A DNA stretch of 64,000 nt from Acidimicrobiales bacterium (GCA_035526335.1 DATLCN010000046.1:45251-109250); one strand, 5' to 3'; counted from the stretch's first letter, positions 9,371 through 32,892 are shown. The notes: generated by a model not told the origin, from the letters alone. Made by a program: numbers and translations.

Positions 9371-9440
9371 CGCCGTCATCCCGCCGGCGTTGGGAGCACA
9401 AGTACATGGCGGGCGGTTCCGGCCCTCAGTCAGTTCGGAA

Positions 9441-10922: not shown

Positions 10923-11011
10923 GCGTCCAGACAAGGCCAACGAAAGCGACGAAAAGACACGCTGTGGTCGCCCCGACGCCGGTGCAGGGTTTCGGGACGT
11001 ACCCTTGCGGA

Positions 11012-14538: not shown

Positions 14539-15260
14539 AGCTTCTCGCGCTCGTAGGCGACTACCGCCTTGATCTCCGCGTCGGAGAGACCGGGGAAGCC
14601 CGGCATGATGCCCTTGGCCGGCCCGCGCTGGCCGCCGGGTCGGTCGGGGTCGCCGTAGGGCTGGCCCTTCACGCCCCCGGAACCGGACTTGATCCACGCC
14701 TCGTGGTCGGCCTCTTCAGGGAAGGTGATCGCCGACTCGCCGCCGGCCAGAGCCGGCCCCACGCCGCCTTCGCCCGCCGCGCCGTGGCACGAGGAGCAGC
14801 CCTGCGAGCGGTACACCTGGGCGCCGAGCACGAGAGGGTCGAGGACCTTCTTCTCGCCACGCTCACCGAACGCTCCCAGGTAGAGGAACCCCCAGAACGG
14901 CAGCAGGACGAATAGCGGCATGACCCACATGGGCAGGCGGGTGCGCGCTACGGCTTCAGCGGCGATGTAGGAGGGGTGAACCGGCTCGTCGACGGCCGCC
15001 GGCGGAGCCGACGGTGTCGCCGGCGCCGGCAACGAGGCAGCCTGGTCCGAAGCGGGCGACGCTGCCGGCGCCACTGCGGGAACGCCACCCTCACCACCAG
15101 CCGGGGCCTCGCCACCCTCAGCGCCACCGCCCAGGCCGAGAGCGGCGCGGCGCTCTCGCGACCGGCGCAGGAGGTGGTCGGGTACTTCTGTCACCGGCGG
15201 GACTGTAGTGGCGCGTACCCCGCTCCCACCAGGCACGAACTGGGTGTGCCAGGGCGCCAT
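14535..15260 (-). CDS. Membrane-anchored monohaem c-type cytochrome
   Basis: A single CSSCH haem motif. One TM segment (LPMWVMPLFVLLPFWGFLYLGAF). C-terminal MPGFPGLSDAEIKAVVAYE, typical of class I cytochrome c. The start is uncertain (ATG 15260 or GTG 15194). Confidence 0.75.
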   Translation of the reverse strand: MAPWHTQFVPGGSGVRATTVPPVTEVPDHLLRRSRERRAALGLGGGAEGGEAPAGGEGGVPAVAPAASPASDQAASLPAPATPSAPPAAVDEPVHPSYIAAEAVARTRLPMWVMPLFVLLPFWGFLYLGAFGERGEKKVLDPLVLGAQVYRSQGCSSCHGAAGEGGVGPALAGGESAITFPEEADHEAWIKSGSGGVKGQPYGDPDRPGGQRGPAKGIMPGFPGLSDAEIKAVVAYEREKL

Positions 15261-15339: not shown

Positions 15340-15361
15340 TAGAATGTGAGCGGTTTCACGA
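15340..15361 (+). promoter_or_regulatory. -10-like hexamer TAGAAT (15340-15345) overlapped by a candidate Rex operator aTGTGAGcggtTTCACga (15344-15361)
   Basis: Inverted repeat TGTGAG-N4-TTCACG, 5/6 + 5/6 against the Streptomyces-type TGTGAA-N4-TTCACA. It sits just upstream of the first bc operon gene (ATG 15379). Confidence 0.55.
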
Positions 15362-15378: not shown

Positions 15379-15840
15379 ATGGTCGCCTTCCTGGTATCAC
15401 TGATCATCACAATCGGGATGTGCGGCATCATCGTGCTCGTGGGCAAACGGCGGCCTCCCGGAACCCCCGTCACATGGGGCGAGGCGTTCGTGGCCGCGAC
15501 GTTCATGTTCGCTCTCATGCTCCTCATGTACGGCGTCGTGCCGAACCAGTGGCTCGCCTGGTCCGACAACGAGCTGGGCTGGCGGAGCGACTCCCTCGGC
15601 ATCCCGACCCCATTCGGCCGCCTGTTCGAGGACGGCCTCCGCTTCGGGGGCCGCGGCCAGATCATCATCACGGCCCAGGTGGTGCGCGACATCATCGCCA
15701 CCACCATCTACATCGTGTTCTTCGCCGGCCAGATCGTCGGATGGCTGTGGTGGCAGAAGAAGCGGGGACGGCGTCCTGTGGCCGCCGCCGGCGAGATCAA
15801 GACCTCCGCGTTCGGGCGACCACTGGCCAGGAAGGCCTGA
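15379..15840 (+). CDS. Small integral membrane protein, first gene of the bc operon, unknown function
   Basis: 3-4 TM segments. ATG 15379 is preceded by GGAAGAGAG. It sits downstream of a TAGAAT -10-like hexamer and a Rex-box-like palindrome. Confidence 0.5.
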   Translation: MVAFLVSLIITIGMCGIIVLVGKRRPPGTPVTWGEAFVAATFMFALMLLMYGVVPNQWLAWSDNELGWRSDSLGIPTPFGRLFEDGLRFGGRGQIIITAQVVRDIIATTIYIVFFAGQIVGWLWWQKKRGRRPVAAAGEIKTSAFGRPLARKA

Positions 15841-15853
15841 GGAAGGAGCACCG

Positions 15854-16267
15854 ATGGCGAAAACGGATGCGAACCCTCCCCTGCCCTCGTTCCCGGGCGA
15901 GTACGTGCTCACCGAGGTCGAGCCCTCTGCACTCTCGATGTCGGTCAAGCCCAAGCAGTTCCTCCACATCGACCAGTCCGAATGCATCATGTGCGAGGGC
16001 TGCGTGGACATCTGCCCGTGGAAGTGCATCCACATGCTGTCCACGGACACCATCACCGACGCGGTCAACACCGAGCAACCCGGCCTCGATCCCGACGACC
16101 ACGTCGTCTTCGTGGTCGACGAGGACGTCTGCACCCGTTGCGGCCTGTGCGTCGACCGCTGCCCCACCGGAGTGATCATCATGGGCAAGGCCGGCCTCGG
16201 CGCTCGTGACGGCGATCGCCACCAGCGTGACAACAAGCACGGGTACTCCTACGGGATGCGGTTCTAA
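15854..16267 (+). CDS. 2x[4Fe-4S] ferredoxin-domain protein
   Basis: Two complete CxxCxxCxxxCP motifs: CIMCEGCVDICP and CTRCGLCVDRCP. Confidence 0.8.
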   Translation: MAKTDANPPLPSFPGEYVLTEVEPSALSMSVKPKQFLHIDQSECIMCEGCVDICPWKCIHMLSTDTITDAVNTEQPGLDPDDHVVFVVDEDVCTRCGLCVDRCPTGVIIMGKAGLGARDGDRHQRDNKHGYSYGMRF

Positions 16268-16291
16268 GGGCCGAGGGGAGCACCGAACGAG

Positions 16292-17071
16292 ATGGCCAAG
16301 CGCCTGGCAGCAAGAGAGCACTTCTCCAAGAAAATGGCGGAGCGCATGGAGTCGATGCAGGGCTCTCAGATCTGGGGCTCGATCTTCCGACCCGGTTCCA
16401 TCTTCCGCAAGGGCTACACCGACAGCCCGAGGAACCGCTCCTACGTGATCATGAACTCGGTGATGTACCACCTTCACCCGGTGAAGGTGAAGCGCCACGC
16501 GGTGAAGGTGAGCTACACCCTCTGCCTGGGCGGCCTGTCGTTCTTCCTGTTCATGCTCCTGACCGTCACGGGCATCTTCCTGATGTTCTTCTACAGACCC
16601 ACCGCCGCTCAGGCCTGGAACGACATCTCCACCCTTCACACATCTGTGGCCTTCGGCCTGCTCGTCCGCAACATGCACCGATGGGCGGCTCACCTGATGG
16701 TGCTGTCGGTGTTCCTCCACATGGCGCGGGTCTTCTACCACGGCGCCTACAAGCCGCCCCGGGAGTTCAACTGGGTGATCGGCGTCGTGTTGCTCACTCT
16801 CACGCTGTTGCTGTCGTTCACCGGTTACCTGCTGCCGTGGGACCAGCTGGCGCTATGGGCGGTGACGGTGGGAACGAACATGATGGGCTACACCCCGGTG
16901 TTCGGCAGTCAGGTCCGCTTCGTGCTGCTCGGCGGCGTCGAGATCGGCACCGACACCCTGTTGCGATGGTACGTACTGCACGTGCTGATGCTTCCCTTCG
17001 TCATCGTCATCTTCATGGCTGTCCATTTCTGGCGGGTCCGCAAGGACGGCGGGATCTCCGGACCGCTGTAG
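16292..17071 (+). CDS. Cytochrome b6-type (short, 4-helix) cytochrome b subunit
   Basis: Helix B shows H-x13-H (HRWAAHLMVLSVFLH). Helix D shows H-x14-H (HVLMLPFVIVIFMAVH), the b6-type spacing. The N-terminal YTLCLGG aligns with the b6 FYCLGG haem-ci Cys. The protein ends after helix D. Confidence 0.88.
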   Translation: MAKRLAAREHFSKKMAERMESMQGSQIWGSIFRPGSIFRKGYTDSPRNRSYVIMNSVMYHLHPVKVKRHAVKVSYTLCLGGLSFFLFMLLTVTGIFLMFFYRPTAAQAWNDISTLHTSVAFGLLVRNMHRWAAHLMVLSVFLHMARVFYHGAYKPPREFNWVIGVVLLTLTLLLSFTGYLLPWDQLALWAVTVGTNMMGYTPVFGSQVRFVLLGGVEIGTDTLLRWYVLHVLMLPFVIVIFMAVHFWRVRKDGGISGPL

Positions 17072-17135
17072 ACGACGATGACCCAGCCTCTCGACACAGC
17101 ATCTGCACCGATCCGGCGAGCCCGCGGAGGTAGCC

Positions 17136-17903
17136 ATGGCTGAGGTGCCCGAACACCTTCTGCGTCGCTCCCAGGAACGGCGTGCCTTCCTCGGCGGCCA
17201 AGGCGGCGGTGCCTCGTCCGGCGGTGGCGGCGGCGGCGGCGACGCTCCCGCCGATGACCCCGACAAGATCCCGGCCGGGCTGCTCCAGAGCAGTGCCGGC
17301 GGCAGCGCCGGGGGTACGGCCACGGCAACCGCGCCTGTGGCCACCGGCGCGGCAGCTTCCGCAGGTGCGCAGGCGCCGGCCGCCGGCATGGTCGGCCCCG
17401 CCGGGCACACCCAGCGCCTGCTCACCGTGGTGAAGGCCGGCTCCATACAGGACGTCAAAGCCACGCCCACCGACAAGGTGCACGTCTGGCCCCATCTCCT
17501 GGTGGTGGAGTTCGTCGCCACCCTCGCCATGACGGCCTTCGTCTTCGTCTTCTCCGCCTTCGTCAACGCGCCGTTGCTGGGCATGGCCAACCCGAACCTG
17601 ACGCCCAATCCGTCGAAGGCGCCGTGGTACTTCCTCGGTCTTCAGGAGCTGCTGACCATGTTCCACCCGATGGTCGCCGGCGTCACCATCCCCGGCATGG
17701 GCCTGTTCGTGCTCGGTGCCGCCGGCTTCATCGACAAGAACCCCAAGAGCAAGCCGGAGGACCGGAAGTTCGCCATCGCCCTCATGACCATGTTCCTGGT
17801 GTTCTGGGCCACCCTCGTCATCATCGGGTCGTTCTTCCGAGGAGAGGGCTTCAACTTCATCCTTCCCTGGCATCAGGGCGTCCACGAGATCTTCGACCTG
17901 TGA
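17136..17903 (+). CDS. Cytochrome b C-terminal part (subunit IV-like) with a long Gly/Ala-rich N-terminal extension
   Basis: KAPWYFLGLQELL (Qo-site PEWY-equivalent, here A-P-W-Y) followed by TM helices. The N-terminus carries the EVPEHLLRRSQERRA motif plus a poly-Gly/Ala linker. Confidence 0.8.
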   Translation: MAEVPEHLLRRSQERRAFLGGQGGGASSGGGGGGGDAPADDPDKIPAGLLQSSAGGSAGGTATATAPVATGAAASAGAQAPAAGMVGPAGHTQRLLTVVKAGSIQDVKATPTDKVHVWPHLLVVEFVATLAMTAFVFVFSAFVNAPLLGMANPNLTPNPSKAPWYFLGLQELLTMFHPMVAGVTIPGMGLFVLGAAGFIDKNPKSKPEDRKFAIALMTMFLVFWATLVIIGSFFRGEGFNFILPWHQGVHEIFDL

Positions 17904-18050
17904 GTCTCGCCTCGCAAGCGCAGCTCGCTCGGCGGGCTTTGTCGGGCTGCGCCCGACCCGCGGAGCGGGATCGGGCTTCGCACCTCTTTTTCGGGCGGCA
18001 TTTATGGGGCCCGCCTTCGGCGGCGTCGGTGGTCGCCGCCCGGGAGAACC

Positions 18051-18869
18051 ATGTCCGGTAGCGCGATTGTCGTAGTCGCCACCCTCGCCCTCGTCGGGCT
18101 CGGGGCGTTGTTCGTGTTCACGACCTCGTCTCGTCGGGATCGGGTGTCGGCTCTGGGGAAGGCCGACAAGACCGACATCGAGGCTCCAGGACCGTCCGGG
18201 CGGGCCGTGGAGCGCTCCGCCGACGCGGCCAGGGAGGGCGGTGCCGGCCTGGCTGTCGCCCCGACGTCGGCCCCGCTGGCGCTCCGGGCCCCCATGGACA
18301 CGGAGACGCTGGGCGTAACCCGGCGCCAGTTCCTCAACCGCAGCATCGTCAACTTCTTCGGCCTGGGCCTCGCCGGGTTCGGCGCCGCCTCGATCGGGTT
18401 CCTGTGGCCCACCCTGTCGGGCGGCTTCGGGTCGAAGATCAAAGCAGGCAAGCTCGACGAGATCCTGGGCCAGATCCGCACCGAGCGGGCGCCGTACTAC
18501 GTGGCCTCCGCCCGCACGTGGATCACCGTGTTCCCCACCGACGCCGTGGGCAAGGCCGAGAAGGCCTACACCGGCGCCGTTCTCGAGGGAATGAAGGAGG
18601 GAGTGGTGGCCCTTTACCAGAAGTGCGTCCACCTCGGCTGCCGCGTTCCGTGGTGCAAGAGCTCGCAGTGGTTCGAATGTCCCTGCCACGGGTCCAAGTA
18701 CAACCGTGTCGGCGAGAAGAAGGGCGGCCCGGCTCCCCGTGGGCTCGATCGCTTCGGCGTGGAGGTCCAGGGCGGCGTCCTGCTGATCGACACCAAGCAG
18801 ATCATCCAGGGGCCGCCCATCGGAGTCAACACCACCGGCCAGGAGGCTGAAGGGCCTCACTGCGCATGA
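18051..18869 (+). CDS. Rieske [2Fe-2S] iron-sulfur subunit
   Basis: CVHLGC and CPCHGS cluster-binding boxes. A Tat-like TRRQFLN lies ahead of the second TM helix. Confidence 0.9.
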   Translation: MSGSAIVVVATLALVGLGALFVFTTSSRRDRVSALGKADKTDIEAPGPSGRAVERSADAAREGGAGLAVAPTSAPLALRAPMDTETLGVTRRQFLNRSIVNFFGLGLAGFGAASIGFLWPTLSGGFGSKIKAGKLDEILGQIRTERAPYYVASARTWITVFPTDAVGKAEKAYTGAVLEGMKEGVVALYQKCVHLGCRVPWCKSSQWFECPCHGSKYNRVGEKKGGPAPRGLDRFGVEVQGGVLLIDTKQIIQGPPIGVNTTGQEAEGPHCA

Positions 18870-19897
18870 GCGGACCCACGCTGGTGCTGGCCGTCAGCAC
18901 GCAGCAGAAGCTGGCGGCGATCACGGTCATCCTCCTCTTCATCGGATGGCTGGCGTACATAGCCACCCATCTGCGCCGCGCCGAGAAGCCCCCGCCCGGC
19001 TCGGAGATCGAGCTGGCTCCCAACCGGAAGCCCTATTTCGACGACGAGGCGCTGGAGGGCCCCCGGCTCGATCGGGCGCTCACCGGCGCCCTGGTGCTGA
19101 TGGTCACCGTCGCCGTGGGTCTGCCCGTGTACTGGGCCAACGAGCCGGGCCGTCAGGCGGGAGCGGTCCGCGGGTTCGATCACCGCGCCGCCAAGCGGGG
19201 GTTCGTCCTGTTCCAGCCCGCCGATTCTCCAGTGCCCGCCGGCAACATCGGCAAGTTCGGCTGTGGTGGTTGCCACGGCACCGAGGGACAGGGTGGCGCC
19301 GCCACCTACTCCCTCGCCGACCCTCTCCACCCGGACAATCCGCCCCGCCAGGTGCAGTGGGCCGCACCCGCGCTCGACACCGTGGCTCTGCGCTACACGA
19401 AGGACCAGATCAAGGCGGTCCTCGTCTACGGCCGGCTGAACACCCCCATGCCCCCGTGGGGTGTGCTGGGCGGCGGCCCCATGAACGACCAGCAGATCAC
19501 CGACCTCATCGCCTACCTGCAGAGCATCGCCCTCGATCCGGAGAAGGCCCAGAACGCAGCGCTCCAGGAGTTCGGTACCGACGGCGGGAAGTTGTTCAAC
19601 GGCTTCTGCGCCCGCTGCCACACCAAGGGATGGTCGTACGGCGAGCCCGAGCAGGCGGGCGCCGGCGCGTTCGGGCCGCCGCTCACAGGAGGCGCCACCC
19701 TGAACCAGTTCCCGAACGTCAGCGACCACGTCGACTTCATCAGAGAAGGTTCTCCCGGTGATCCGGGCACCCCATACGGCAGGAACTACGGCGAGCGCGG
19801 GGTCCTGGGCTACGAAGGTGGCGGCATGCCGTTCTTCGGCAAGATGCTGACCGCCGAGCAGATAAAGGCCATCGTCGCCTATGAACGGAGCCTGTGA
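18866..19897 (+). CDS. Membrane-anchored dihaem c-type cytochrome
   Basis: Two CxxCH motifs (CGGCH, CARCH). N-terminal TM anchor. ATGA start/stop overlap with the Rieske gene. Confidence 0.8.
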   Translation: MSGPTLVLAVSTQQKLAAITVILLFIGWLAYIATHLRRAEKPPPGSEIELAPNRKPYFDDEALEGPRLDRALTGALVLMVTVAVGLPVYWANEPGRQAGAVRGFDHRAAKRGFVLFQPADSPVPAGNIGKFGCGGCHGTEGQGGAATYSLADPLHPDNPPRQVQWAAPALDTVALRYTKDQIKAVLVYGRLNTPMPPWGVLGGGPMNDQQITDLIAYLQSIALDPEKAQNAALQEFGTDGGKLFNGFCARCHTKGWSYGEPEQAGAGAFGPPLTGGATLNQFPNVSDHVDFIREGSPGDPGTPYGRNYGERGVLGYEGGGMPFFGKMLTAEQIKAIVAYERSL

Positions 19898-20670
19898 TGG
19901 AGGTCCTGCTCGCCGCCTTGAAGTGGGACCCCCAGATCCGTGGCGCGTCCATCGTGCTGGCGGGGATCTTCGTCCTCATGGGCAGCGTGTACCTGTTGCT
20001 CTCCACCAACATGGGTGCTCGGGTCGGTTTCCTCCTGACCGTCGCCGGGATCTCCGGCTGGTTCACGGTGATGGGGGCGGTATGGATGGTCTTCGGCATC
20101 GGGCTCAAGGGTTCGGAACCGGAGTGGAGGGTCCTCGAGGTGATCGACGGGGAGATGGCCCAGTCGACGCAGGACGTGGTGGCCGGGTTCCCCGACAACT
20201 GGAAGTCGCTGAAGTCAGGTGACGCGGGGTTGGCCGACGCCCAGGCCGCTGCTGACCACGTCCTTGCACCGGCGGCGGCCGAGACTGGTGGCCACGGCGA
20301 GGAGGCCGGCGGGGGTGAGCCCGAAGAGAAGTTCGAGTCGCCGTTCAAGAAGACGGACGACTACGTGCTCCTCGACGGCTATCGCAAGGGGGGCGAGAAG
20401 TACCTGCTGACGCTCCGCCACCGGCCCCATTACGCCATCGTGCGGGTGAAGCCGTCGTTCTTCGACAAGGCCGTGCCCGGCCTCAAGCCCCAGTTGGACC
20501 TGACCGCACCGACCACCTCCGTGCTCATGGTCCGTGACCTCGGCAACCTCAGGTTCCCGCCGTTCCTCTTCACGATAGCCTCCGCGATCTTCTTCGGCGT
20601 CACCTGTTACTCGCTCCACCAGAGGGACCGCGAGGTCATGCGCCAGCGGGCGGAGGCGGCTCTGGCGTAG
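19894..20670 (+). CDS. Membrane protein of unknown function, last gene of the bc operon
   Basis: Three N-terminal TM helices and one C-terminal TM helix flank an acidic soluble region. Translationally coupled (GTGATG) to the cytochrome c gene. Confidence 0.5.
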   Translation: MMEVLLAALKWDPQIRGASIVLAGIFVLMGSVYLLLSTNMGARVGFLLTVAGISGWFTVMGAVWMVFGIGLKGSEPEWRVLEVIDGEMAQSTQDVVAGFPDNWKSLKSGDAGLADAQAAADHVLAPAAAETGGHGEEAGGGEPEEKFESPFKKTDDYVLLDGYRKGGEKYLLTLRHRPHYAIVRVKPSFFDKAVPGLKPQLDLTAPTTSVLMVRDLGNLRFPPFLFTIASAIFFGVTCYSLHQRDREVMRQRAEAALA

Positions 20671-20692: not shown

Positions 20693-21148
20693 ATGAGCGA
20701 GTACCTGCCCATACTGACGATGCTGGTGCTGGCGCTCGTCTTCGCGGCGGGGTCGTTCCTCGCCTCGGCTCTTCTGGCTCCCCGGAAGCCCACGGCGGCC
20801 AAATCGGCGCCCTACGAGTGTGGGATCGTGCCCGACAAGGAGCCGGCGGAGAGATTCCCCGTGCGCTTCTACCTGGTGGCCATGATCTTCATCATCTTCG
20901 ACATCGAGATCATCTTCATCTACCCGTGGGCCGTCATCTTCCGCCAGCTCGAGTTGTTCGGCCTCATCGAGATGGTGGTGTTCGCGGTGGCCGTGTTCGT
21001 CTCGTTCGTGTACCTGATCAGCAACGGGGCCCTCGACTGGGGCCCCGCCCGACCGGAGCGTGCCATCGACCCCATGGGGACCGGCCGCACCAGCGGCTCC
21101 ACCGTCCGGCGGATCAACCGCACCGGCCAGACGGTCGAGGCGGCCTAG
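20693..21148 (+). CDS. nuoA: NADH-quinone oxidoreductase subunit A (copy 1, with C-terminal extension)
   Basis: APYECGI and [11 protein letters not shown] motifs. About 30 extra C-terminal residues compared with copy 2. Confidence 0.92.
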
Positions 21149-21153
21149 CCGTC

Positions 21154-21663
21154 ATGGGCCTGGAATCACTGAACCACAACTTCCTCACGGGGACTCTCGA
21201 GGAGGTGGTCAAGTGGGCCCGCCAGAACAGCCTGTGGCCGGCCACCTTCGGCCTGGCCTGCTGCGCCATCGAGATGATGGCCACCGGCGCCTCGAACTTC
21301 GACATCGCCCGCTTCGGCATGGAGGTGTTCCGATCCTCTCCCCGCCAGGCCGACCTGATGATCGTCGCCGGCCGGGTGAGCCAGAAGATGGCTCCGGTGC
21401 TGCGCCAGGTGTACGACCAGATGATGGAGCCGAAGTGGGTCATCTCCATGGGGGTCTGCGCCTCGTCCGGCGGCATGTTCAACAACTACGCCATCGTCCA
21501 GGGCGTGGACCAGATCGTGCCCGTCGACGTCTACGCCCCCGGCTGCCCTCCGGGCCCGGAGACGCTGCTCCACTCCATCATCACCCTCCACGACAAGATC
21601 CGAACCGGCGAGATCACACGCCGGCCGGGCGGGGCACCGGCGGTCATCGGGCAGCCGGCGTGA
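21154..21663 (+). CDS. nuoB: NADH-quinone oxidoreductase subunit B
   Basis: [23 protein letters not shown] and [10 protein letters not shown] (N2 cluster ligands). Confidence 0.93.
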
Positions 21664-22184
21664 GCGAGGCGGGCCAGGAGAGCGAGATCCCCGAGGAGCC
21701 GCCTGCTCCGGAGACGCTCCTCGGCGCTCCCGTCGGCTGGTCGCATGGTCAGCAGGTCGTCCATCCCCCGCGCTCCGGCTACCTCGACACGGTGGAGTCC
21801 CTGTACGGACAGGGTTTCAACCTGTGCAGCGACCTCTGTGCGGTCGACTATCTGGCCCATCTCGGGCGGCCGCTCCCCGAGGGCGTGGGCCCCGAACGGT
21901 TCGAGGTCGTGGTGAACGTCACCTCCCTTGCCCTGCACCGACGCCTCCGGATCCGGGTGCAGGTCCCGGAAGGCGATCCCGTGGTCGCGTCCCTGTTCGC
22001 CATCCACCCCGGAACCGAGGCCATGGAGCGGGAGGCCTACGACCTGATGGGGATCCGATTCGAGGGGCACCCCGACCTGACCAGGATCATGATGCCCGAG
22101 GACTGGGAGGGGCATCCGCTGCGCAAGGACTACTCGGTGGGGCGGGTGCCGGTGCAGTTCAAAGCCGCCCCCCTCGGCCGGTGA
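21660..22184 (+). CDS. nuoC: NADH-quinone oxidoreductase subunit C
   Basis: [21 protein letters not shown]...[15 protein letters not shown] start overlaps the nuoB stop. Confidence 0.9.
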
Positions 22185-22188
22185 TGAC

Positions 22189-23523
22189 GTGACCGCCACC
22201 GGCCACAACATGGCCGAGACGTCCGAGGGCGCCCAGGAGATGGGCGAGCGCAGCCGCACCGACGCGGCTGAGTTGTTGAGGGAGGAGGGATCGGTCCTGC
22301 GGCTTCCCGAGGGAACCGCCCTCGACCCCGGCGACTACAACCTCGAGTCCGTCGACGAGGACGACACCATGATCATCAACATGGGACCTCAGCACCCGTC
22401 GACCCACGGGGTGCTGCGGGTGATGCTCGAGCTCCAGGGTGAGACCGTCCTTCGTTCCAAGCCCGTCATCGGCTACCTCCACACGGGCATCGAGAAGACC
22501 CAGGAAGAGCTCATGTACATCCAGGGGTCCAGCAACGTGACCCGCATGGACTACCTGGCCAACTTCTTCAACGAGAGCGTGTTTTCCCTCGCGGTGGAGG
22601 CCCTGCTGGAGGTGGAGGTGCCGCCTCGCGCCACCTGGATCCGCATGCTGCTGATGGAGCTGAACCGGGTGTCCTCCCACCTCTTGTTCATGGCCACCAA
22701 CGGGATGGACGTGGGCGCCATCTCGATGATGCTGTACGGCTGGCGGGAACGGGAGACGATCCTGGCCTTCTTCGAGAAGGTGTCGGGGCTGCGGATGAAC
22801 CACAACTTCATCCGCCCGGGCGGTGTCGCCGCCGACCTCCCCGACGGATGGCGCGAAGACGTGCTGGCCATCTGCGACGCCATCCCTCCCAGGCTCGAGG
22901 AGTACGACACCCTCATTACCGGCCAGCCGATCTTCCAGCAGCGCACGCAGGGCGTCGGTGTCCTCCGTGCCGAGCAGGCCATCGCCCTGTCGGCCACGGG
23001 GCCGATCCTGCGGGCCACCGGCACGGCGTGGGACATCCGCCGCGACCTGCCCTACCTGTTCTACGACCAGCTCGAGTTCAACGTCGTGGTCGGCACCTAC
23101 GGTGACGCCTTCGACCGATATGCGGTCCGCCTCAACGAGATGCGGGAGTCGCTCCACATCGTGCGCCAGATCGTCGAGCTCATGCCCTCCGGTGACTACC
23201 GGGTTCAGGACAAGAAGGTGACCCCGCCGCCGCGGGCCCGCATCGACGAATCCATGGAGGCCCTCATCCACCACTTCAAGCTCTTCACCGAAGGATTCAA
23301 GGTTCCCGCGGGCGAGGTGTACGTCGCCGTAGAGTCTCCTCGGGGAGAGCTGGGTGGGTACCTCGTCTCGGACGGCTCGGCCAAGCCCTACCGCTTCCAC
23401 ATGCGTGATCCTTCCTTCGCCAACCTCCAGGCCCTGCCGGTGATGCTGCGGGGAGGAATGGTGGCCGACGCCGTGGCCGTGATCTCCTCCATCGACCCGG
23501 TCATGGGCGGAGTCGACCGATGA
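22189..23523 (+). CDS. nuoD: NADH-quinone oxidoreductase subunit D
   Basis: NMGPQHPSTHGVLR, GYLHTGIEK and a C-terminal SIDPVMGGVDR. Confidence 0.93.
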   Translation: MTATGHNMAETSEGAQEMGERSRTDAAELLREEGSVLRLPEGTALDPGDYNLESVDEDDTMIINMGPQHPSTHGVLRVMLELQGETVLRSKPVIGYLHTGIEKTQEELMYIQGSSNVTRMDYLANFFNESVFSLAVEALLEVEVPPRATWIRMLLMELNRVSSHLLFMATNGMDVGAISMMLYGWRERETILAFFEKVSGLRMNHNFIRPGGVAADLPDGWREDVLAICDAIPPRLEEYDTLITGQPIFQQRTQGVGVLRAEQAIALSATGPILRATGTAWDIRRDLPYLFYDQLEFNVVVGTYGDAFDRYAVRLNEMRESLHIVRQIVELMPSGDYRVQDKKVTPPPRARIDESMEALIHHFKLFTEGFKVPAGEVYVAVESPRGELGGYLVSDGSAKPYRFHMRDPSFANLQALPVMLRGGMVADAVAVISSIDPVMGGVDR

Positions 23524-23536
23524 CGGGCGGGCCTTC

Positions 23537-24130
23537 ATGGCGCGGCTGAATGTCGAGAACGTGCAGCGGGCGAGAGAGCTCATCGCCCTGTACCCGGTGC
23601 CCCGCTCGGCCCTGATCCCGATCCTGCACGTGGCCCAGGAGCAGGACGGCTGGCTCACCCCGGAGGCTGTTTCCCATGTGGCCGAACTGCTCGACCTCAC
23701 TGCCGCCGAGGTGTACGGCACGGCCAGCTTCTACGACATGTTCTTCACCGAGCCGGTGGGGCGTCACCTGGTGTCGGTCTGCACCAACATCGCCTGCCTC
23801 CTCAACGGCGGCTACGAGCTGCTCGAGCATGCCGAGCAGAAGCTCGGCATCAAGGCCGGCGCCACCACCGAGGACGGCGAGTTCACACTCGAAGAGGCGG
23901 AGTGCCTGGCCCTGTGCGGAGCTGCGCCCTGCCTCACCGTCAACTGGCGCTTTTTCGGGCCCGTGACTCCCGAGTCGTTCGACAAGCTCGCCGGCTACCT
24001 GCGCGATGGGGAGCTGGCCCATCAGGTGCCGCCGCACGGCACCCTGTGCCGCGTGCGCCGCTCGGTGGGGCTGCCCGCCCGTAGCGCCGGCGAGGCCGGC
24101 CCGGGCGTGGACAGCGGGGGGACCGCCTGA
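23537..24130 (+). CDS. nuoE: NADH-quinone oxidoreductase subunit E
   Basis: Thioredoxin-like [2Fe-2S] pattern VCTNIAC ... ECLALCGAAPC. Confidence 0.9.
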   Translation: MARLNVENVQRARELIALYPVPRSALIPILHVAQEQDGWLTPEAVSHVAELLDLTAAEVYGTASFYDMFFTEPVGRHLVSVCTNIACLLNGGYELLEHAEQKLGIKAGATTEDGEFTLEEAECLALCGAAPCLTVNWRFFGPVTPESFDKLAGYLRDGELAHQVPPHGTLCRVRRSVGLPARSAGEAGPGVDSGGTA

Positions 24131-25434
24131 TGCCGCTCACCGATGCGCGACCCATCGTCACCCGCCGGGTCTCCGTCCCCGAGTCGTGGACGCTGAAGGC
24201 GTACCTGGAGAACGGCGGCTACGTTGGTTTGCGCAAGGCCCTGACCATGGAGCCCGAAGCCATCACCCAGGAGGTTCTCGCCTCCAACCTCCTCGGTCGC
24301 GGCGGCGCCGGCTTCGAGGCGGGCAAGAAGTGGTCGATGCTGCGAAAAGCGCAGCCCGTGTACCTCGTGGTCAACGGCGACGAGAGCGAGCCGGCCACGT
24401 TCAAGGACCACATGCTCCTCGAGGCCGACCCCCACCAGATCCTCGAAGGCGTGGTGATCTGCGCCTACGCCGTGGGGGCTGCCCAGGCCTTCGTCTACGT
24501 CCGTGGCGAATTCGCCCTCGGCCTCGAGCGGATGACCGAGGCGGTCAACGAGGCTTACGAGCACGGCGCCGTCGGCCGCGACATCTTCGGGTCGGGGTTC
24601 TCCGTGGACGTCGTGGTCCATCCCGGTGCGGGTGCCTACATCTGCGGCGAGGAGACCGCCCTGATCGAGAGCCTGGAGGGCAAGAGAGGCTTTCCCCGGA
24701 TCAAGCCCCCGTTCTTCCCCGCCGCCATCGGGCTTTACGGCGCGCCCACGGTGGTCAACAACGTGGAGACGATGTCCAACCTGCCGTGGATCGTCGAGCA
24801 CGGCGGAGCGGCATTCGCCGCCCTCGGCATCGGGCGGTCGACGGGAACCCGGATCTTCTCCCTGTCGGGACACGTGAAGCGGCCCGGCAACTACGAGGTG
24901 GAGATGGCCAAGGTCACGTTCCGGGACCTGATCGAGGATCCGAGGCTGGGTGGCGGAATCCGCGACGGCAACCAACTGAAGGCGTTCATCCCGGGTGGGG
25001 TCTCGGCCCCGTGGTTCTCCCCCGACCAGGTCGACATGGCTCTCGACCAGGACGCGGTAGGCAAGGCGGGATCCATGCTTGGCTCCGGCTCCGTGGTGAT
25101 CATGGACCACACCACCTGCGCGGTGCGGGCCGTGTGGCGCATCACCCGCTTCTTCCACCGGGAGTCGTGCGGCCAGTGCACGCCCTGCCGCGAGGGGAGC
25201 GGGTGGCTGGAAAAGATCATGCGGCGCATCGAGCAGGGTGCAGGGCGCGAGGAGGACCTCGAGTTGCTGCTCGACGTCTGCGACAACATCGCCCCTGGCC
25301 TCGGCTGGCCGCCCCAGCAGACCACCATCTGCGTGCTCGGTCCCTCGATTCCGTCCTCCATCAAATCCGGCGTGAACATGTTCCGCGACGAGTTCCTCAC
25401 CCACGTCAAAGAAGGGGCCTGCCCCTATGGCTGA
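24130..25434 (+). CDS. nuoF: NADH-quinone oxidoreductase subunit F
   Basis: GRGGAGFEAGKKW (FMN/NADH site), NGDESEPATFKD and ESCGQCTPCREG (N3 cluster). Confidence 0.94.
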   Translation: MPLTDARPIVTRRVSVPESWTLKAYLENGGYVGLRKALTMEPEAITQEVLASNLLGRGGAGFEAGKKWSMLRKAQPVYLVVNGDESEPATFKDHMLLEADPHQILEGVVICAYAVGAAQAFVYVRGEFALGLERMTEAVNEAYEHGAVGRDIFGSGFSVDVVVHPGAGAYICGEETALIESLEGKRGFPRIKPPFFPAAIGLYGAPTVVNNVETMSNLPWIVEHGGAAFAALGIGRSTGTRIFSLSGHVKRPGNYEVEMAKVTFRDLIEDPRLGGGIRDGNQLKAFIPGGVSAPWFSPDQVDMALDQDAVGKAGSMLGSGSVVIMDHTTCAVRAVWRITRFFHRESCGQCTPCREGSGWLEKIMRRIEQGAGREEDLELLLDVCDNIAPGLGWPPQQTTICVLGPSIPSSIKSGVNMFRDEFLTHVKEGACPYG

Positions 25435-28165
25435 CACCGCCAGCCAGACCGGGACGCTGACGATCAACGTCGATGGCGACCCGATGCCCGCCCGTCCGGG
25501 AGAGATGCTGATCGCCGCGGCCGAGCGTGGTGGCGTGTACATCCCCAGGTTCTGTTACCACCCCCGTTTGCGCCCGGTCGGCATGTGCCGCATGTGCCTG
25601 GTCGAGGTAAAGGGACCCCGGGGCTTCGGCCTGGCGCCGGCCTGCTTCATCCCGGTGGCCGACGGCCAGGAGGTGATCACCAGGTCGGACAAGGTGAAGA
25701 AGGCTCAGGACGGCGTCCTCGAGTTCCTGCTCGTCAACCATCCGCTCGACTGCCCGGTCTGCGACAAGGGGGGGGAGTGCCCGCTCCAGGACCAGACGCT
25801 GGCCTACGGTCCGGGCGAGACCCGCTTCGTCGAGGAGAAGCGTCACTGGGCCAAGCCCATCGCCCTGTCGGACCTGGTGTCCCTCGACCGGGAGCGCTGC
25901 ATCCAGTGCGATCGCTGCACCCGCTTCGCCGACGAGGTGGCCGGCGACCCCCTGATCGAGTTCAAGGGCCGCGGCGACCACATCGAGGTGGCCACCTTTC
26001 CCGACCAGCCTTTCGCGTCCTACTTCTCGGGCAACACCGTGCAGATCTGCCCGGTGGGCGCTCTGCTGTCCCGGCCCTACCGCTTCAAGGCCCGTCCCTG
26101 GGATCTCGAGCAGGTCGAGAGCACCTGCACCATGTGCAGCGTGGGTTGCCGGATAGCGGTCCAGTCCTCCGGGCCGGAGCTCACCCGCTACATAGGCCTC
26201 GACAGTGACCCCGTCAACCACGGCTGGCTGTGCGACAAGGGGCGCTACAGCTACTCCTACGTGAACTCGCCCGAGCGGCTGTCCCATCCGCTCGTGCGCA
26301 AGAGCGGTGAGATGGTGGAGGCGTCGTGGGGCGAAGCTCTCGAAGCGGCGGCCCGGGGACTGGACGGAGCACGCAGCGTCCACGGCGCCGCCTCCCTCGC
26401 CGTTCTGGGCGGAGCCCGGCTGGCCAACGAGGACGCCTACACCTGGGCCAGGCTGGCCAAGGGAGTGCTCCGTACCGACAACGTCGACGCCCAGCTCGGC
26501 GACGGCCTCCCCGCCGAGGTGGTGCTTGGGCTGCCCCGCGCCACCATCGACGACGCCTGCTCCGCTCCCGCCGTGGTCCTGCTCGCTCCGGACCTCAAGG
26601 AGGAGCTGCCCGTCCTCTACCTGCGTCTGCGGGCTGCGGCGCTCGAGGCCGGCGTGCCGTTCGTGGAGCTGACCCCCCGGAAAACCGGCATGTCGCGCCA
26701 TTGCGAGGCCAGCCTCGCCTACCGGCCGGGTGAGGCGCCGGCGCTGGCCAAGGCGCTGGTCGAAGGGTCGGCGTCAGACGTGGCCGGTGTGCCGGCAGCC
26801 TCGATCGCCACCGCCCACGAACTGCTCGGCGTCGAGGGTGCGGTGGTCGTGCTGGGGCGGCCGTCACTGGCGGAATCGGCCGGCTCCATCGCCGCCGCCG
26901 CGGCGATCCTGGCCGGCGGGCTTCCCGGGTGCCGCTTCCTGCCCGCCCTGCGCCGCGCCAACGTGCTGGGTGCTCTCGACATGGGCCTGGCTCCCGGGCT
27001 GCTCCCTGGTCGCGTCTCGTTGGATGCGGGGCGAGGGTGGTTCACCCAGGCGTGGGGTGGCACCCCCGAGCAGCGGGGCCTCGACGCCGCCGGCATCCTC
27101 GGCGCCGCCGCCGAGGGTCGCATCCAGGGGCTGGTGCTCCTGGGCTCCGACCCGTTGTCCGACTATCCCGACCGCCGCCTTGCCCGCGCCGCCCTGGCCG
27201 GGGCCGGCTTCGTGGTGGCTGTCGACACCTTCCTGACGGCGTCCTCCGGCCAGGCCGACGTCGTGCTGCCCGCCGCCGCCTTCGCGGAGCGGGCCGGCAC
27301 CACCACCAACCTGGAGGGCCGGATCACGCGGCTGGGCCAGAAGATCGTCCCCCCCGGCGTGGCCTGGCCGGACTGGATGATCGCCGCCGAGCTCGCCTTC
27401 CGCCTGGGAGCCGACCTCGGCGTCGAGAGTCTCGAGGAGATCTGGCAGGAGATCGAGCGGGTGGCGCCCTCACACCGCGGGATCAGCCGGGCACTGCTGG
27501 CCGACCGCCGGCACCGTGACGGAGTCGTGGCACCGCTGGCCGACGGGGCGCCGGCCGACCTGCGGCCGCCGCCCGAGGCGGCCACCGGCACGGGCGCCGG
27601 GTCCACCACCGCGGCCGTTCCCGCCGGCGTCGATCCCATGTCGACGCCGGGGGTCGATTCGGTCGAGACCCAGGGCCTACCCGCCACCGACGCCGCGGCC
27701 GCCACCGCCCCCTCTGGAGGCGTGGATCCCGGACCAGAAGGTGCACTGGACCGGGATCCGGAGCCGTCGACGCCGGCGCCCCCGCCGCCGATGCTGACGT
27801 GGGCCGGCGACCACTCGCCGCCACCGCTGGCGCCGCTCGACGGTTACTCGTTGCGGCTGATCACCGGCCGCACGCTCTATGACAGCGGCAGCCTGGTCCA
27901 GCACACGCCGGCGCTGGCCTCGCTGGCCGGCGCCTCCCGGCTGCGGGCCAACCCCTACGACCTCGAGCGACTCGGTCGGGGGCAGGGTGGTCAAGTCCGG
28001 GTCCGCTCCAACCGGGCCACGTTCCTGGCCGAGGCGGTTCCCGACGCCGGCGTGCCTCGGGGTTCGGTCTGGCTGCCGTTCGATGCCGGCGCCGGCGAGA
28101 TCAGCGCCGGCGAGGTCATCGACGCCACCGTCGCCGTCACCGACCTCCGGGTCGAGACACCGTGA
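25427..28165 (+). CDS. nuoG: NADH-quinone oxidoreductase subunit G (long form with a Pro/Ala/Thr-rich insertion)
   Basis: CYHPRL..GMCRMCLVEV, HPLDCPVCDKGGECPLQD and CIQCDRCTRF cluster motifs. A molybdopterin-like domain follows. A low-complexity insert lies at about 27.55-27.8 kb. Confidence 0.92.
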   Translation: MADTASQTGTLTINVDGDPMPARPGEMLIAAAERGGVYIPRFCYHPRLRPVGMCRMCLVEVKGPRGFGLAPACFIPVADGQEVITRSDKVKKAQDGVLEFLLVNHPLDCPVCDKGGECPLQDQTLAYGPGETRFVEEKRHWAKPIALSDLVSLDRERCIQCDRCTRFADEVAGDPLIEFKGRGDHIEVATFPDQPFASYFSGNTVQICPVGALLSRPYRFKARPWDLEQVESTCTMCSVGCRIAVQSSGPELTRYIGLDSDPVNHGWLCDKGRYSYSYVNSPERLSHPLVRKSGEMVEASWGEALEAAARGLDGARSVHGAASLAVLGGARLANEDAYTWARLAKGVLRTDNVDAQLGDGLPAEVVLGLPRATIDDACSAPAVVLLAPDLKEELPVLYLRLRAAALEAGVPFVELTPRKTGMSRHCEASLAYRPGEAPALAKALVEGSASDVAGVPAASIATAHELLGVEGAVVVLGRPSLAESAGSIAAAAAILAGGLPGCRFLPALRRANVLGALDMGLAPGLLPGRVSLDAGRGWFTQAWGGTPEQRGLDAAGILGAAAEGRIQGLVLLGSDPLSDYPDRRLARAALAGAGFVVAVDTFLTASSGQADVVLPAAAFAERAGTTTNLEGRITRLGQKIVPPGVAWPDWMIAAELAFRLGADLGVESLEEIWQEIERVAPSHRGISRALLADRRHRDGVVAPLADGAPADLRPPPEAATGTGAGSTTAAVPAGVDPMSTPGVDSVETQGLPATDAAAATAPSGGVDPGPEGALDRDPEPSTPAPPPPMLTWAGDHSPPPLAPLDGYSLRLITGRTLYDSGSLVQHTPALASLAGASRLRANPYDLERLGRGQGGQVRVRSNRATFLAEAVPDAGVPRGSVWLPFDAGAGEISAGEVIDATVAVTDLRVETP

Positions 28166-29343
28166 TCCTCGCCGGAGACCCGCTCTTCGTCGGTGGCGTC
28201 GACGGCGCCGTGATCCTGATCGTGCTCCTCAAGACCGGCGTCGCCTTCGCCGCCCTCATGGTCTCGGTGCTGTTCATGGTGTGGTTCGAGCGCAAGCTGG
28301 TCTCCGACATGCAGAACCGGATCGGCCCGAACCGGGCCGGACCGTGGGGAACGCTGCAGACGCTGGCCGACGGCATCAAGCTGTTCTTCAAGGAGGACCT
28401 CCTCCCGGAGCAGGCCGACCGGCGCATCTTCCGCCTGGCGCCGTACCTGTCTATCGTTCCCGCCTTCCTGGCCTTCGCCATCGTGCCCCTGGGAGGGACC
28501 ATCGAGGTCGCCGGGCGGGAGACCCGCCTCCAGCTGGCCGATCCTCCGGTAGGCATCCTGTTTCTGCTGGCCATGTCGTCGGTCGCCGTCTATGGCGTGA
28601 TGCTGGCCGGCTGGTCGTCGGGCTCGAAGTACCCGCTCCTCGGTTCGGTGAGGGCGTCGGCCCAGATGGTCTCCTACGAGGCCGCCCTCGGTCTGTCGGT
28701 GGCCGCGGTGGTCCTGGTCACCGGGTCCCTTCTCACCAGTGACATCGTCTCGGAGCAGTCGCACTCACTCTTCGACTGGAACCTGTTCCGCCTCGGGTTC
28801 CTGCCCTTCGGCATCTTCCTGCTGGCGGCGACGGCCGAGCTGAACCGGCCTCCCTTCGACCTCGTGGAGGCGGAACAGGAACTGGTGGGTGGGTTCCACA
28901 CCGAGTACTCCTCGTTGCGCTTCGCCCTGTTCTTCCTGGCCGAGTTCATGAACACGGTCACCATGTCCGCCATCGTGGTGACCCTCTTCCTCGGCGGGCC
29001 GAGCGGGCCCGGTCCCGACAGCGGCTTCCCCGGCGCCCTGCTCCCGGTGTTCTGGTTCCTGGCCAAGCTGATGATCTTCCTCTTCACCTACGTGTGGCTG
29101 CGGGCCACTCTGCCGCGTTTGCGCTACGACCAGCTGATGGATCTCGGCTGGAAGAAGCTGATCCCGCTGTCGTTGTTCTGGCTGCTCGTCCTCGCCGCCA
29201 TGATGCTCGACCGCACGTACGGATTCGCCGTCTTCGCCGGCGGTGTCGTCCTGGCCGGTCTGCTCCTGCGGGCGGTACAGGTGGGCCAGGGCGTCACCGA
29301 CGACGCCGCTGCGGCCAAGGCCGCATTCCGAGAGGCAGGCTGA
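28162..29343 (+). CDS. nuoH: NADH-quinone oxidoreductase subunit H
   Basis: ERKLVSDMQNRIGPNR and ELNRPPFDLVEAEQELVGGFHTEYS. Confidence 0.93.
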   Translation: MILAGDPLFVGGVDGAVILIVLLKTGVAFAALMVSVLFMVWFERKLVSDMQNRIGPNRAGPWGTLQTLADGIKLFFKEDLLPEQADRRIFRLAPYLSIVPAFLAFAIVPLGGTIEVAGRETRLQLADPPVGILFLLAMSSVAVYGVMLAGWSSGSKYPLLGSVRASAQMVSYEAALGLSVAAVVLVTGSLLTSDIVSEQSHSLFDWNLFRLGFLPFGIFLLAATAELNRPPFDLVEAEQELVGGFHTEYSSLRFALFFLAEFMNTVTMSAIVVTLFLGGPSGPGPDSGFPGALLPVFWFLAKLMIFLFTYVWLRATLPRLRYDQLMDLGWKKLIPLSLFWLLVLAAMMLDRTYGFAVFAGGVVLAGLLLRAVQVGQGVTDDAAAAKAAFREAG

Positions 29344-29347
29344 CGCA

Positions 29348-29956
29348 ATGGGTTATCTCGACGGGTTCAGGATCACGTTCAAGACGCTGTTCGACGATCG
29401 TGTCACGACCCAGTACCCCGAGGAGAAGCGTCCGAAGCCCGAGCGGCTCCACGGCCGCCACGTGCTCAACCGCTACGAGGACGGCATGGAGAAGTGCATC
29501 GGGTGCGAGCTCTGCGCCGGCGTGTGCCCCGCCCGCTGCATCTACGTCCGCGGTGCCGACAACCCGCCGGAGGCGCCGGTGTCCCCGGGAGAGCGTTTCG
29601 GGTTCGTCTACGAGATCAACTATCTGCGCTGCATCCACTGCGACCTGTGCGTGGAGGCGTGTCCCACCGAGGCCATCACCGAGGGCAAGCTCTTCGAGTT
29701 CTCCTTCACCAACCGCCAGGACGCCATCTACACCAAAGAGGAGCTGGTGGTGGACGACGAGGGCCGGCCCCGCCAGATGCCGTGGGAGGACTGGCGCGAC
29801 GGTGAGGACGTTCACACCTCGGCGTGGGTGCGGGCCACGGCCCCGTCGGGGGCCGCTGAGTTCGAGGGCAAGGTCCAGTGGTCGGGCGAGCTCGGTTACG
29901 GCGTTCGCTCACCCGAGGTGGGGCAGTCCCAGGACCAGCACGGCGACGGCGCGTAG
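29348..29956 (+). CDS. nuoI: NADH-quinone oxidoreductase subunit I
   Basis: CIGCELCAGVCP and CIHCDLCVEACP (two 4Fe-4S motifs). ATG start at 29348. Confidence 0.92.
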   Translation: MGYLDGFRITFKTLFDDRVTTQYPEEKRPKPERLHGRHVLNRYEDGMEKCIGCELCAGVCPARCIYVRGADNPPEAPVSPGERFGFVYEINYLRCIHCDLCVEACPTEAITEGKLFEFSFTNRQDAIYTKEELVVDDEGRPRQMPWEDWRDGEDVHTSAWVRATAPSGAAEFEGKVQWSGELGYGVRSPEVGQSQDQHGDGA

Positions 29957-30004
29957 CGGGTCGATCAGGACTCCGGGAGGGCGGCTCGGCTAGCCTCCGG
30001 GCTC

Positions 30005-30610
30005 GTGCTGGCCGCCACCAAGGTCGACATCGCCGTGTTCGGCGCTTCGGCGGCCATAGTGCTGTCCGGGGCGATCGGCGTGGTGATCTCGGCCAATCCC
30101 GTCCACGCCGCGCTGGCGTTGGTGATGACGCTTTTCGGCGTCGCCGTGCTCTTCGTGGCCCAGGAAGCGCACTTCCTGGCCGCCGTCCAGGTGATCGTCT
30201 ACGCCGGCGCCATCGTGGTGCTGTTCCTGTTCGTGATCATGCTCCTAGGAGTCGACCGGAAGGAGAATGTCGCCCAGGAACAGCTGCGGGGTCAGCGCCC
30301 CATCGCGTTCCTGCTCGGAATGATCACCATTGCCGAGCTCGTGCTGCTCACCCGTGGGACGGGTTGGGTCACCGGTGCCGAGGCCGTGGTGGGCAAGGCG
30401 AGTGGTCCCGGTACCAACGTCGAGAAGCTGGCCACCTCCTTGTTCACGCGGTACCTGCTCGCCTTCGAGATGACGTCCGTGCTGCTCGTGATCGCCGTGG
30501 TCGGTGCCGTGGTGCTTGCCCGCCGCCCACCTCCGGAGCCGCCGGGCTCCGAGGCCGCCCTGGATGCCGACGTCGAGGTCTTCGCCCCCGAGGAGCTCCC
30601 GGTTCCATGA
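30005..30610 (+). CDS. nuoJ: NADH-quinone oxidoreductase subunit J
   Basis: Five-TM protein with [20 protein letters not shown]. Operon position between nuoI and nuoK. Confidence 0.88.
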
Positions 30611-30623
30611 GCAGCCCCGCTTC

Positions 30624-30929
30624 ATGAGCGTCGACGGGGGCTGGTACCTGACACTGGCGGCGATGCTCTTCACCATCGGCGCCGTCGGCCTCCTCGTTCG
30701 CCGCAACGTCCTGGTGATGTTCATGTGTGTAGAGCTCATGCTCAACGCCGTCAACCTCACCTTCGTCACCTTCGCCCGCATGCTCGACGACATAGGCGGA
30801 CAGGCCCTGGTCTTCTTCGTGCTGGTGGTAGCCGCGGCCGAAGTCGTGGTCGGGCTCGGCATCATCGTCTCCATCTTCCGGCGCCGCGGCGGCACCACCG
30901 CCGACGACCTCCACCTCCTCAAGGGATAG
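30624..30929 (+). CDS. nuoK: NADH-quinone oxidoreductase subunit K
   Basis: 101-aa, 3-TM protein with [12 protein letters not shown] and [11 protein letters not shown]. Confidence 0.9.
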
Positions 30930-30940
30930 CCCGGCCCAGC

Positions 30941-32890: not shown

Positions 32891-32892
32891 CG

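Follow-up and report, generated by a model that had tools for sequence, protein, structure and literature searches.

A b6-type Rieske/cytochrome b gene cluster with a ferredoxin gene and two novel membrane protein genes adjoins the complex I operon in Acidimicrobiia

Textbooks describe the actinobacterial respiratory chain as a QcrCAB-aa3 supercomplex. Acidimicrobiia, with Microthrix and Ilumatobacter among them, abound in soil, freshwater, the ocean and activated sludge. The locus described here bears on which complex III this class uses. It lies in a 64,000-nucleotide stretch of an Acidimicrobiales genome (GCA_035526335.1, DATLCN010000046.1:45251-109250), referred to as the window, which belongs to a 1.84-Mb, 80%-complete metagenome-assembled genome whose nearest relatives are soil Acidimicrobiales. 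Seven tightly packed open reading frames (ORFs) on the plus strand, each where a first-pass annotation of the sequence had placed it, encode a membrane protein (memA), a ferredoxin, a cytochrome b6-type protein, a subunit IV-like protein, a Rieske protein, a dihaem cytochrome c and a second membrane protein (memB); ORFs and Pfam/NCBIfam domains agree on this order (Table 1). The nuo operon encoding complex I follows. The explanation that fits best, to which we assign a probability of about 0.6, is that of a b6c-type Rieske/cytochrome b complex III with clade-specific partners, the genes of which are joined to nuo.

We compared the cytochrome b with all chains of the Protein Data Bank (PDB) by phmmer and assigned domains with Pfam and the curated hidden Markov models (HMMs) of NCBIfam. 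The best structural matches were cyanobacterial and plastid cytochromes b6 (E ~3e-48), and residues 73-259 aligned with residues 30-215 of the spinach, Chlamydomonas and Nostoc proteins (6rqf, 1q90, 2zt9) with one gap only, a single residue near the C-terminus. Cys78, which lies in the sequence YTLCLGG, coincides with the haem ci ligand Cys35 of b6, the equivalent of Arg207 is present, and the histidines are spaced as in b6 (H-x13-H in helix B and H-x14-H in helix D). These assignments had been proposed from the sequence; we looked for a misalignment of the cysteine and of the H-x14-H motif, and the near gap-free alignment with the solved b6 chains upheld both. The Qo motif likewise reads APWY as proposed, within the sequence KAPWYFLG of subunit IV, and is invariant among relatives. 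Across about 100 relatives from several classes, CLGG, the four histidines, APWY and the eight ferredoxin cysteines are at least 98% conserved. From the sequence, a covalent haem ci is predicted on the conserved Cys78. No solved structure is closer than that of b6, and the clade to which this cytochrome b belongs is therefore structurally unsolved.

The two subunits carry extensions on the cytoplasmic side. Cytochrome b has a strongly conserved N-terminal extension of ~50 amino acids on the n-side, and subunit IV has a low-complexity cytoplasmic N-terminal tail of ~110 amino acids that begins MAEVPEHLLRRSQERRA and whose PEHLL..S core is at least 98% conserved. We also observed that the beginning of this tail recurs in a monohaem cytochrome c encoded divergently upstream of memA, the real start of which is probably near 15194, giving the N-terminus M-TEVPDHLLRRSRERRA. 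The peptide common to subunit IV (17136-17180) and the divergent cytochrome c (~15150-15194, minus strand) reads M-(A/T)-EVP(E/D)HLLRRS-x-ERRA and is followed in both proteins by a long Gly/Ala-rich tail before the first transmembrane (TM) helix; a role as a cytoplasmic docking tag is possible.

In the Rieske protein, an extra TM helix at the N-terminus precedes a twin-arginine motif inside the chain (TRRQFLN) and a further TM helix (18051-18400), a layout that recalls the Rieske proteins of other actinobacteria, which are inserted by both the Sec and the twin-arginine translocation (Tat) systems. As its c-type subunit the cluster encodes a class-I cytochrome c with two haems (two CxxCH motifs), which does not qualify as a cytochrome f. 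We consider it very likely that the locus encodes a b6-type complex III. The complex resembles cytochrome b6f in its haem-ligand spacing, in the Cys35 and Arg207 equivalents and in having a separate subunit IV. It differs in that the dihaem cytochrome c replaces cytochrome f, in APWY rather than PEWY, in a score of 212.7 bits with the b6 HMM (PRK03735) against a cut-off of 325, and in that its operon contains a ferredoxin gene, whereas ferredoxin is at most a transient partner of b6f. Presumably the quinone is menaquinone, unlike in b6f.

The first-pass annotation had regarded split b6-type proteins with a subunit IV as known from cyanobacteria and plastids, Firmicutes and Heliobacteria, a view that is too narrow. 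Kao and Hunte (2014; PMC4122944) described an 'APWY clade', in which cytochrome b is split and has a CxGG motif. Its members come from Deltaproteobacteria, Chloroflexi, Nitrospirales, Planctomycetes, some Firmicutes and deep-branching Actinobacteria, Ilumatobacter (Acidimicrobidae) among the latter, and according to these authors none of them has been characterised biochemically. The window proteins share the split cytochrome b with subunit IV, APWY and CxGG with this clade and differ in having LCLGG where most of the clade has WCMGG. Our placement of the cytochrome b rests on the curated HMM scores and on the published tree (PMC4122944). As that clade has been published, the cytochrome b lineage itself is already known.

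Three further systems were compared. With the Firmicute b6c complexes (Bacillus QcrABC, heliobacterial PetABCD), in which haem ci has been demonstrated biochemically, the complex shares respiratory menaquinol oxidation and a split cytochrome b. In Bacillus, however, subunit IV is fused to cytochrome c (QcrC), the Qo motif is PDWY, and there is no ferredoxin, memA or memB, whereas here subunit IV is separate and free of CxxCH, with the cytochrome c gene two genes downstream. The actinobacterial QcrCAB complex belongs to the same phylum, has the same overall job and also contains a dihaem cytochrome c, but its cytochrome b is long and unsplit, lacks CxGG and has a PDWY Qo motif; its HMMs score the window proteins far below the cut-offs (QcrB 121 against 500, QcrA 21 against 275, QcrC 32 against 200). 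Anammox Rieske/cytochrome b complexes (Kartal 2013 and de Almeida 2016), as summarised by Dibrova et al. 2017 (PMC5600118), resemble the locus in combining a short cytochrome b with an operon-encoded cytoplasmic FeS partner, a combination that implies n-side electron traffic; in that account the partners are large cytoplasmic NAD(P)/FeS oxidoreductases that bind FAD and NAD(P), as opposed to the 137-residue, two-cluster ferredoxin found here.

In the NCBI pipeline, the cytochrome b is labelled 'selenite/tellurite reduction operon cytochrome ExtP', a name that derives from a Geobacter cluster. The window protein does exceed the ExtP cut-off (306.1 bits against 290), although the model does not cover the N-terminal extension, and subunit IV stays well below that of ExtQ (48.3 bits against 150). 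In Geobacter, the Ext context consists of the multihaem cytochromes ExtKLMNS, the porin ExtI and the rhodanese ExtH (PMC5877670). Among the neighbours of the cluster we found no multihaem Ext cytochromes, porin or rhodanese, and the selenite/tellurite name is therefore misleading.

A scan of species-representative genomes yielded 80 loci, all of them labelled Acidimicrobiia (Microthrix, Iamia, Aquihabitans, Ilumatobacteraceae and others) or situated on evident mis-binned contigs. In tblastn searches with all window proteins, gene order was identical throughout, beginning at the divergent cytochrome c and reaching nuoA and nuoD, where contigs were long enough. The synteny of the ferredoxin and the two membrane ORFs with the bc genes is thus kept in about 80 Acidimicrobiia loci, and that of the ferredoxin with a split cytochrome b extends to homologues of only 35-40% identity, which provides comparative support for the earlier suggestion of a b6c-type complex with extra partners that include a peripheral FeS protein.

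For counts across the class, we used an even sample of 151 Acidimicrobiia genomes. A b6-type cytochrome b was present in 142 of them, the ferredoxin in 135 and COX2 in 140, while the classical actinobacterial QcrB occurred in 20, among them six of the nine genomes devoid of a b6-type protein. Most of the high-identity b6 genes for which no ferredoxin was detected lie at contig edges, and the module is retained even in streamlined genomes of ~1 Mb. Because of these counts, we regard the complex as probably the main forward-running menaquinol:cytochrome c reductase in Acidimicrobiia, which QcrCAB replaces or accompanies in some genomes. Outside the class, a sample of 301 genomes of the phylum contained about 104 with a ferredoxin of this type. 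All 12 loci that were fetched from these, with ferredoxins 35-45% identical, show the order ferredoxin, b6, subunit IV, Rieske and cytochrome c; nine gave a match for memB and three for memA, and none has nuo downstream. The module predates its joining to nuo.

The genome studied here is one of those with both systems. A complete ctaE-qcrC-qcrA-qcrB cluster and ctaC lie on a different contig (C53), where QcrB (642 bits against 500) and QcrC (235 against 200) pass their cut-offs and QcrA (265 against 275) falls just below. This adds to the background of the first-pass annotation, which named classical qcrCAB with its long, unsplit cytochrome b as the actinobacterial form. Two COX2 genes were seen, one beside qcrCAB on C53 and one ~24 kb upstream of the window (G000:C31:21212-21430); the latter shares its contig with the window and is a candidate for the terminal oxidase of the b6-type complex.

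We then consider the ferredoxin, which distinguishes the locus from b6f and from the Bacillus complex. As it lacks a TM helix, a signal peptide and a Tat motif, it must be cytoplasmic. Only Fer4-type domains were found in it, and the Pfam/NCBIfam search returned no FAD, flavin or NAD(P) domain. Both termini are conserved, with NPP-P at the N-terminus and GYxYGMR at the C-terminus, and identity across the class is 61-98%, above that of the Rieske and cytochrome c subunits. The family is narrow: a HMMER search of 1.8 billion cluster representatives retrieved 150 representatives at E <= 1e-10. All five distant ferredoxins that were looked up (35-42% identity) are encoded directly upstream of a cytochrome b gene. 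Two long intact metagenome contigs carry, after a small upstream ORF, the genes for ferredoxin, cytochrome b, subunit IV, Rieske and cytochrome c, with a memB-like ORF last; their flanks hold cytochrome c maturation genes and a haem-copper oxidase, and one also has rex; a third long contig is frameshifted, keeps the memA-to-memB order and has nuoA downstream. The remaining contigs are short. Some Acidimicrobiia have, in addition, a paralogous b6-type cluster (L117, G048:C23; L118, G023:C1) whose b6 is 56% identical and is preceded by a shorter 2x[4Fe-4S] gene; memA and memB were undetected there, and in L117 the ferredoxin and b6 matches lie in different frames. Public calls in which the ferredoxin or subunit IV is fused to b6, such as P0018, have the look of frameshifted high-GC read-through. 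On balance, we favour the ferredoxin being a real subunit of the complex; that it serves as an electron port at haem ci is a more tentative proposal.

The products of memA and memB belong to no Pfam or NCBIfam family above threshold; a match of memA to the Pfam family NMN_transporter (26.1 bits, below the cut-off) was taken as chance similarity of TM helices. Gene memA is present in 74 of 82 loci. Across loci, identity to the window proteins ranges from 33 to 91% for memA and from 25 to 79% for memB, compared with 82-99% for b6. AlphaFold2 models, built from alignments of 66-71 sequences, show three TM helices for memA (predicted local distance difference test score, pLDDT, 82), and, for memB (pLDDT 91), the same number of TM helices together with an acidic alpha/beta domain that spans ~150 amino acids. 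A Foldseek search of the PDB gave nothing below E = 0.1 for either model, and phmmer against PDB sequences gave no match. For the memB domain, faint START/Bet v1-like Foldseek matches recurred, which we note as a lead only. The basic tail of memA, which ends in a conserved YGRPL motif, would be cytoplasmic by the positive-inside rule, and by the same rule the acidic domain of memB is probably on the outer face, beside the Rieske and cytochrome c heads. The terminal motifs of the ferredoxin, the memA tail, the memB domain and the N-terminal extension of b6 are plausible docking elements.

The gap between memB and nuoA is 22 nt, as the first-pass annotation had noted (stop at 20670, start at 20693); it holds the ribosome-binding site of nuoA (GGAGGAGG), with no room for a promoter. 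Over 65 loci, its median is ~6 nt. In a consensus promoter scan, the sole -10-like hexamer was TAGAAT at 15340, upstream of memA, and no promoter-like site was seen before the Rieske gene or nuoA. The start of the first ORF can be the annotated ATG at 15379, which has the better ribosome-binding site, or the GTG at 15346, which directly abuts TAGAAT. Upstream of memA, 53 of 78 loci have a Rex box (TTGTGAA-N4-TTCACAA with no more than 3 mismatches), as compared with 2% of random 240-nt windows, and a bona fide rex gene (identified by HMM) lies 9 kb upstream at 5819-6544. The box suggests that the whole bc-nuo string is regulated in response to the NADH/NAD+ ratio. Co-transcription with complex I, raised earlier as a possibility, can be called probable on comparative grounds, namely the tiny gaps and conserved order together with the positions of promoter and operator.

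On this basis we propose the following model. The core of the complex would consist of the split cytochrome b with its haem ci cysteine, the APWY subunit IV, the Rieske protein and the membrane-anchored dihaem cytochrome c, and would run forward from menaquinol to cytochrome c, in this genome beside a second, classical QcrCAB. The bc genes and the 14-subunit nuo operon would be read from one promoter upstream of memA that carries a Rex operator; with such a shared promoter, complexes I and III would be switched on together. The ferredoxin may dock as a peripheral n-side subunit near the Qi/haem ci pocket and thereby link the quinone-reduction site to cytoplasmic low-potential carriers, while the memA basic tail would face the cytoplasm and the memB acidic domain would point outward by the Rieske and cytochrome c heads. 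The fullest form of this model, a complex III with a permanently bound 2x[4Fe-4S] ferredoxin beside haem ci, where electrons at the ferredoxin level enter or leave the Q cycle at the quinone-reduction site, is speculative.

Several points weigh against the proposed model. To our knowledge, no demonstration of haem ci on CxGG in the APWY clade is on record. One locus (L119, G096:C55:66000-80000) has memA, b6, subunit IV, Rieske, cytochrome c and memB with no ferredoxin gene, so that the ferredoxin can evidently be dispensed with; in that locus the cluster and the geranylgeranyl reductase gene with nuoA are arranged divergently, and the cluster does not lie upstream of nuoA; the genome also has QcrB. 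Ferredoxin-b6 fusion entries (P0003, P0012, P0100 and P0111), considered as Rosetta-stone evidence, were rejected because their Arg/Pro-rich linkers resemble frameshifted read-through. As to a source of reduced ferredoxin, KOR alpha was not found in the 80%-complete genome, and neither was 2-oxoglutarate dehydrogenase E1. Complexes of the APWY type have been proposed to work in reverse (PMC4122944). Finally, a terminator-like hairpin (17960-17981) followed by a T-run (to 17990) lies between subunit IV and Rieske and could split the string into two units.

This hairpin is an argument for regarding the bc genes and nuo as merely adjacent, with separate transcription or a cut between subunit IV and Rieske. 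The 147-nt gap in which it lies (17904-18050) is very stable, with a minimum free energy of -78 kcal/mol, and a second stem covers the Rieske ribosome-binding site; moreover, the module is not beside nuo outside the class and is divergent from it in L119. In most relatives, however, the same gap is shorter than 60 nt, and the long structured version is therefore lineage-specific; it could be an attenuator or stability element. A search for signals that would isolate the bc genes thus gave a divided outcome, a terminator-like hairpin inside the bc genes and no promoter-like site before nuoA. With the short memB-nuoA spacing in 65 loci, and with the conserved Rex box located only upstream of memA, we consider mere adjacency unlikely.

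It is less likely still that the three partners (ferredoxin, memA and memB) stay outside the finished complex and serve in its assembly or maturation, for instance in haem ci attachment on the cytoplasmic side or in cofactor insertion. The three proteins belong to no described family, and L119 keeps the cluster without the ferredoxin. We know of no haem ci attachment machinery outside oxygenic phototrophs, a point that we count in favour of this explanation. Yet each of the three genes has a set place in the operon, where translational coupling or a very short gap ties it to its neighbours, the ferredoxin is better conserved in the class than the Rieske and cytochrome c subunits, and no Pfam match to the CCB families of haem ci assembly was found.

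About equally improbable is a bifurcating or reverse machine, in which low-potential electrons from the Qo site pass through haems b and ci and exit through the 2x[4Fe-4S] protein to an acceptor in the cytoplasm, as proposed for anammox Rieske/cytochrome b complexes, or electrons run from cytochrome c to menaquinone: Kao and Hunte tie APWY to reverse operation (PMC4122944), anammox short cytochrome b complexes carry a cytoplasmic FeS/NAD(P) oxidoreductase subunit (PMC5600118) and an n-side FeS protein would fit the need of such a scheme, but the ferredoxin has no FAD or NAD(P) domain, and in most genomes of the class the complex is the sole Rieske/cytochrome b complex alongside cytochrome c oxidase, and a forward complex III function is therefore needed. 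That QcrB occurs in genomes without the b6-type protein indicates substitution and not specialisation.

We thus retain the b6c-type complex III with clade-specific partners as the preferred explanation. In the open-access literature, we found no description of a ferredoxin subunit of actinobacterial Rieske/cytochrome b complexes, which is weak evidence as most subscription journals were outside the search. Neither did we find there a description of memA, memB, the dominance in Acidimicrobiia, the nuo fusion or the Rex box. The small ferredoxin, memA and memB, the Acidimicrobiia-wide dominance, the nuo link and the Rex box are thus what appears new here, in the sense that we did not find them described.

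By the class-wide counts, about nine in ten Acidimicrobiia use the b6-type complex, and this distribution argues against APWY Qo sites marking reverse-running enzymes. If the fullest form of the model is true, Acidimicrobiia and several further deep-branching classes of actinobacteria would have such a complex as their standard complex III. Entry of electrons from ferredoxin at haem ci has long been proposed for b6f. An n-side FeS protein tied to a haem ci complex bears on the purpose of haem ci and on direct feeding of Qi by ferredoxin, and the complex would, again if this is true, represent a built-in ferredoxin:menaquinone oxidoreductase in non-photosynthetic aerobes and a stable, purifiable model for the debated b6f route. 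Complex III and complex I genes under a Rex operator would offer a simple example of co-regulation by the NADH/NAD+ ratio. For annotation, the public naming after the Geobacter selenite/tellurite cluster misleads.

Table 1. Features of the bc-nuo region; coordinates are those of the window.
Feature	Coordinates	Strand	Evidence or remark
Divergent monohaem cytochrome c, membrane-anchored, CSSCH, one TM helix	14535..15260	-	ORF and domain search
TAGAAT, -10-like hexamer	15340-15345	+	overlaps Rex-type palindrome
Rex-type palindrome ATGTGAGCGGTTTCACGA	15344-15361	+	sequence; conserved box upstream of memA
memA, 3-TM membrane protein	15379..15840	+	ATG 15379; alternative start GTG 15346
2x[4Fe-4S] ferredoxin, 137 aa	15854..16267	+	Fer4; two CxxCxxCxxxCP motifs
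Four-helix cytochrome b6-type subunit	16292..17071	+	PF00033, E = 6.8e-46
Subunit IV-like protein, 3 TM helices, Qo motif APWY	17136..17903	+	PF00032, E = 7.7e-7
Structured intergenic gap, 147 nt	17904..18050	+	terminator scan and folding
Rieske 2Fe-2S protein	18051..18869	+	PF00355; CVHLGC and CPCHGS boxes
Dihaem cytochrome c, N-terminal anchor	18866..19897	+	CGGCH and CARCH; start overlaps Rieske stop
memB, 3-TM protein	19894..20670	+	start overlaps cytochrome c stop
nuo operon	20693..34533	+	nuoA begins 22 nt past memB stop

HMM matches verified nuoA, B, C, E, F, G, H, I, L and M in the operon downstream of memB, and the set thus includes its own nuoI. The nuoD assignment follows from conserved position and tblastn matches in related loci only, and the next gene in the operon is presumably nuoN. 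On the other side of the cluster, 68 of 82 loci keep the divergent cytochrome c gene ahead of memA; in the window, a MenJ-like geranylgeranyl reductase gene has the same divergent orientation. Further upstream, six more ORFs follow rex in a string (window 5819-13256). At the end of the window, a second NuoA-like ORF (63519-63884; MSAFLRGYLSVLVF...YISYESGVD) suggests a second nuo-type operon in the same genome.

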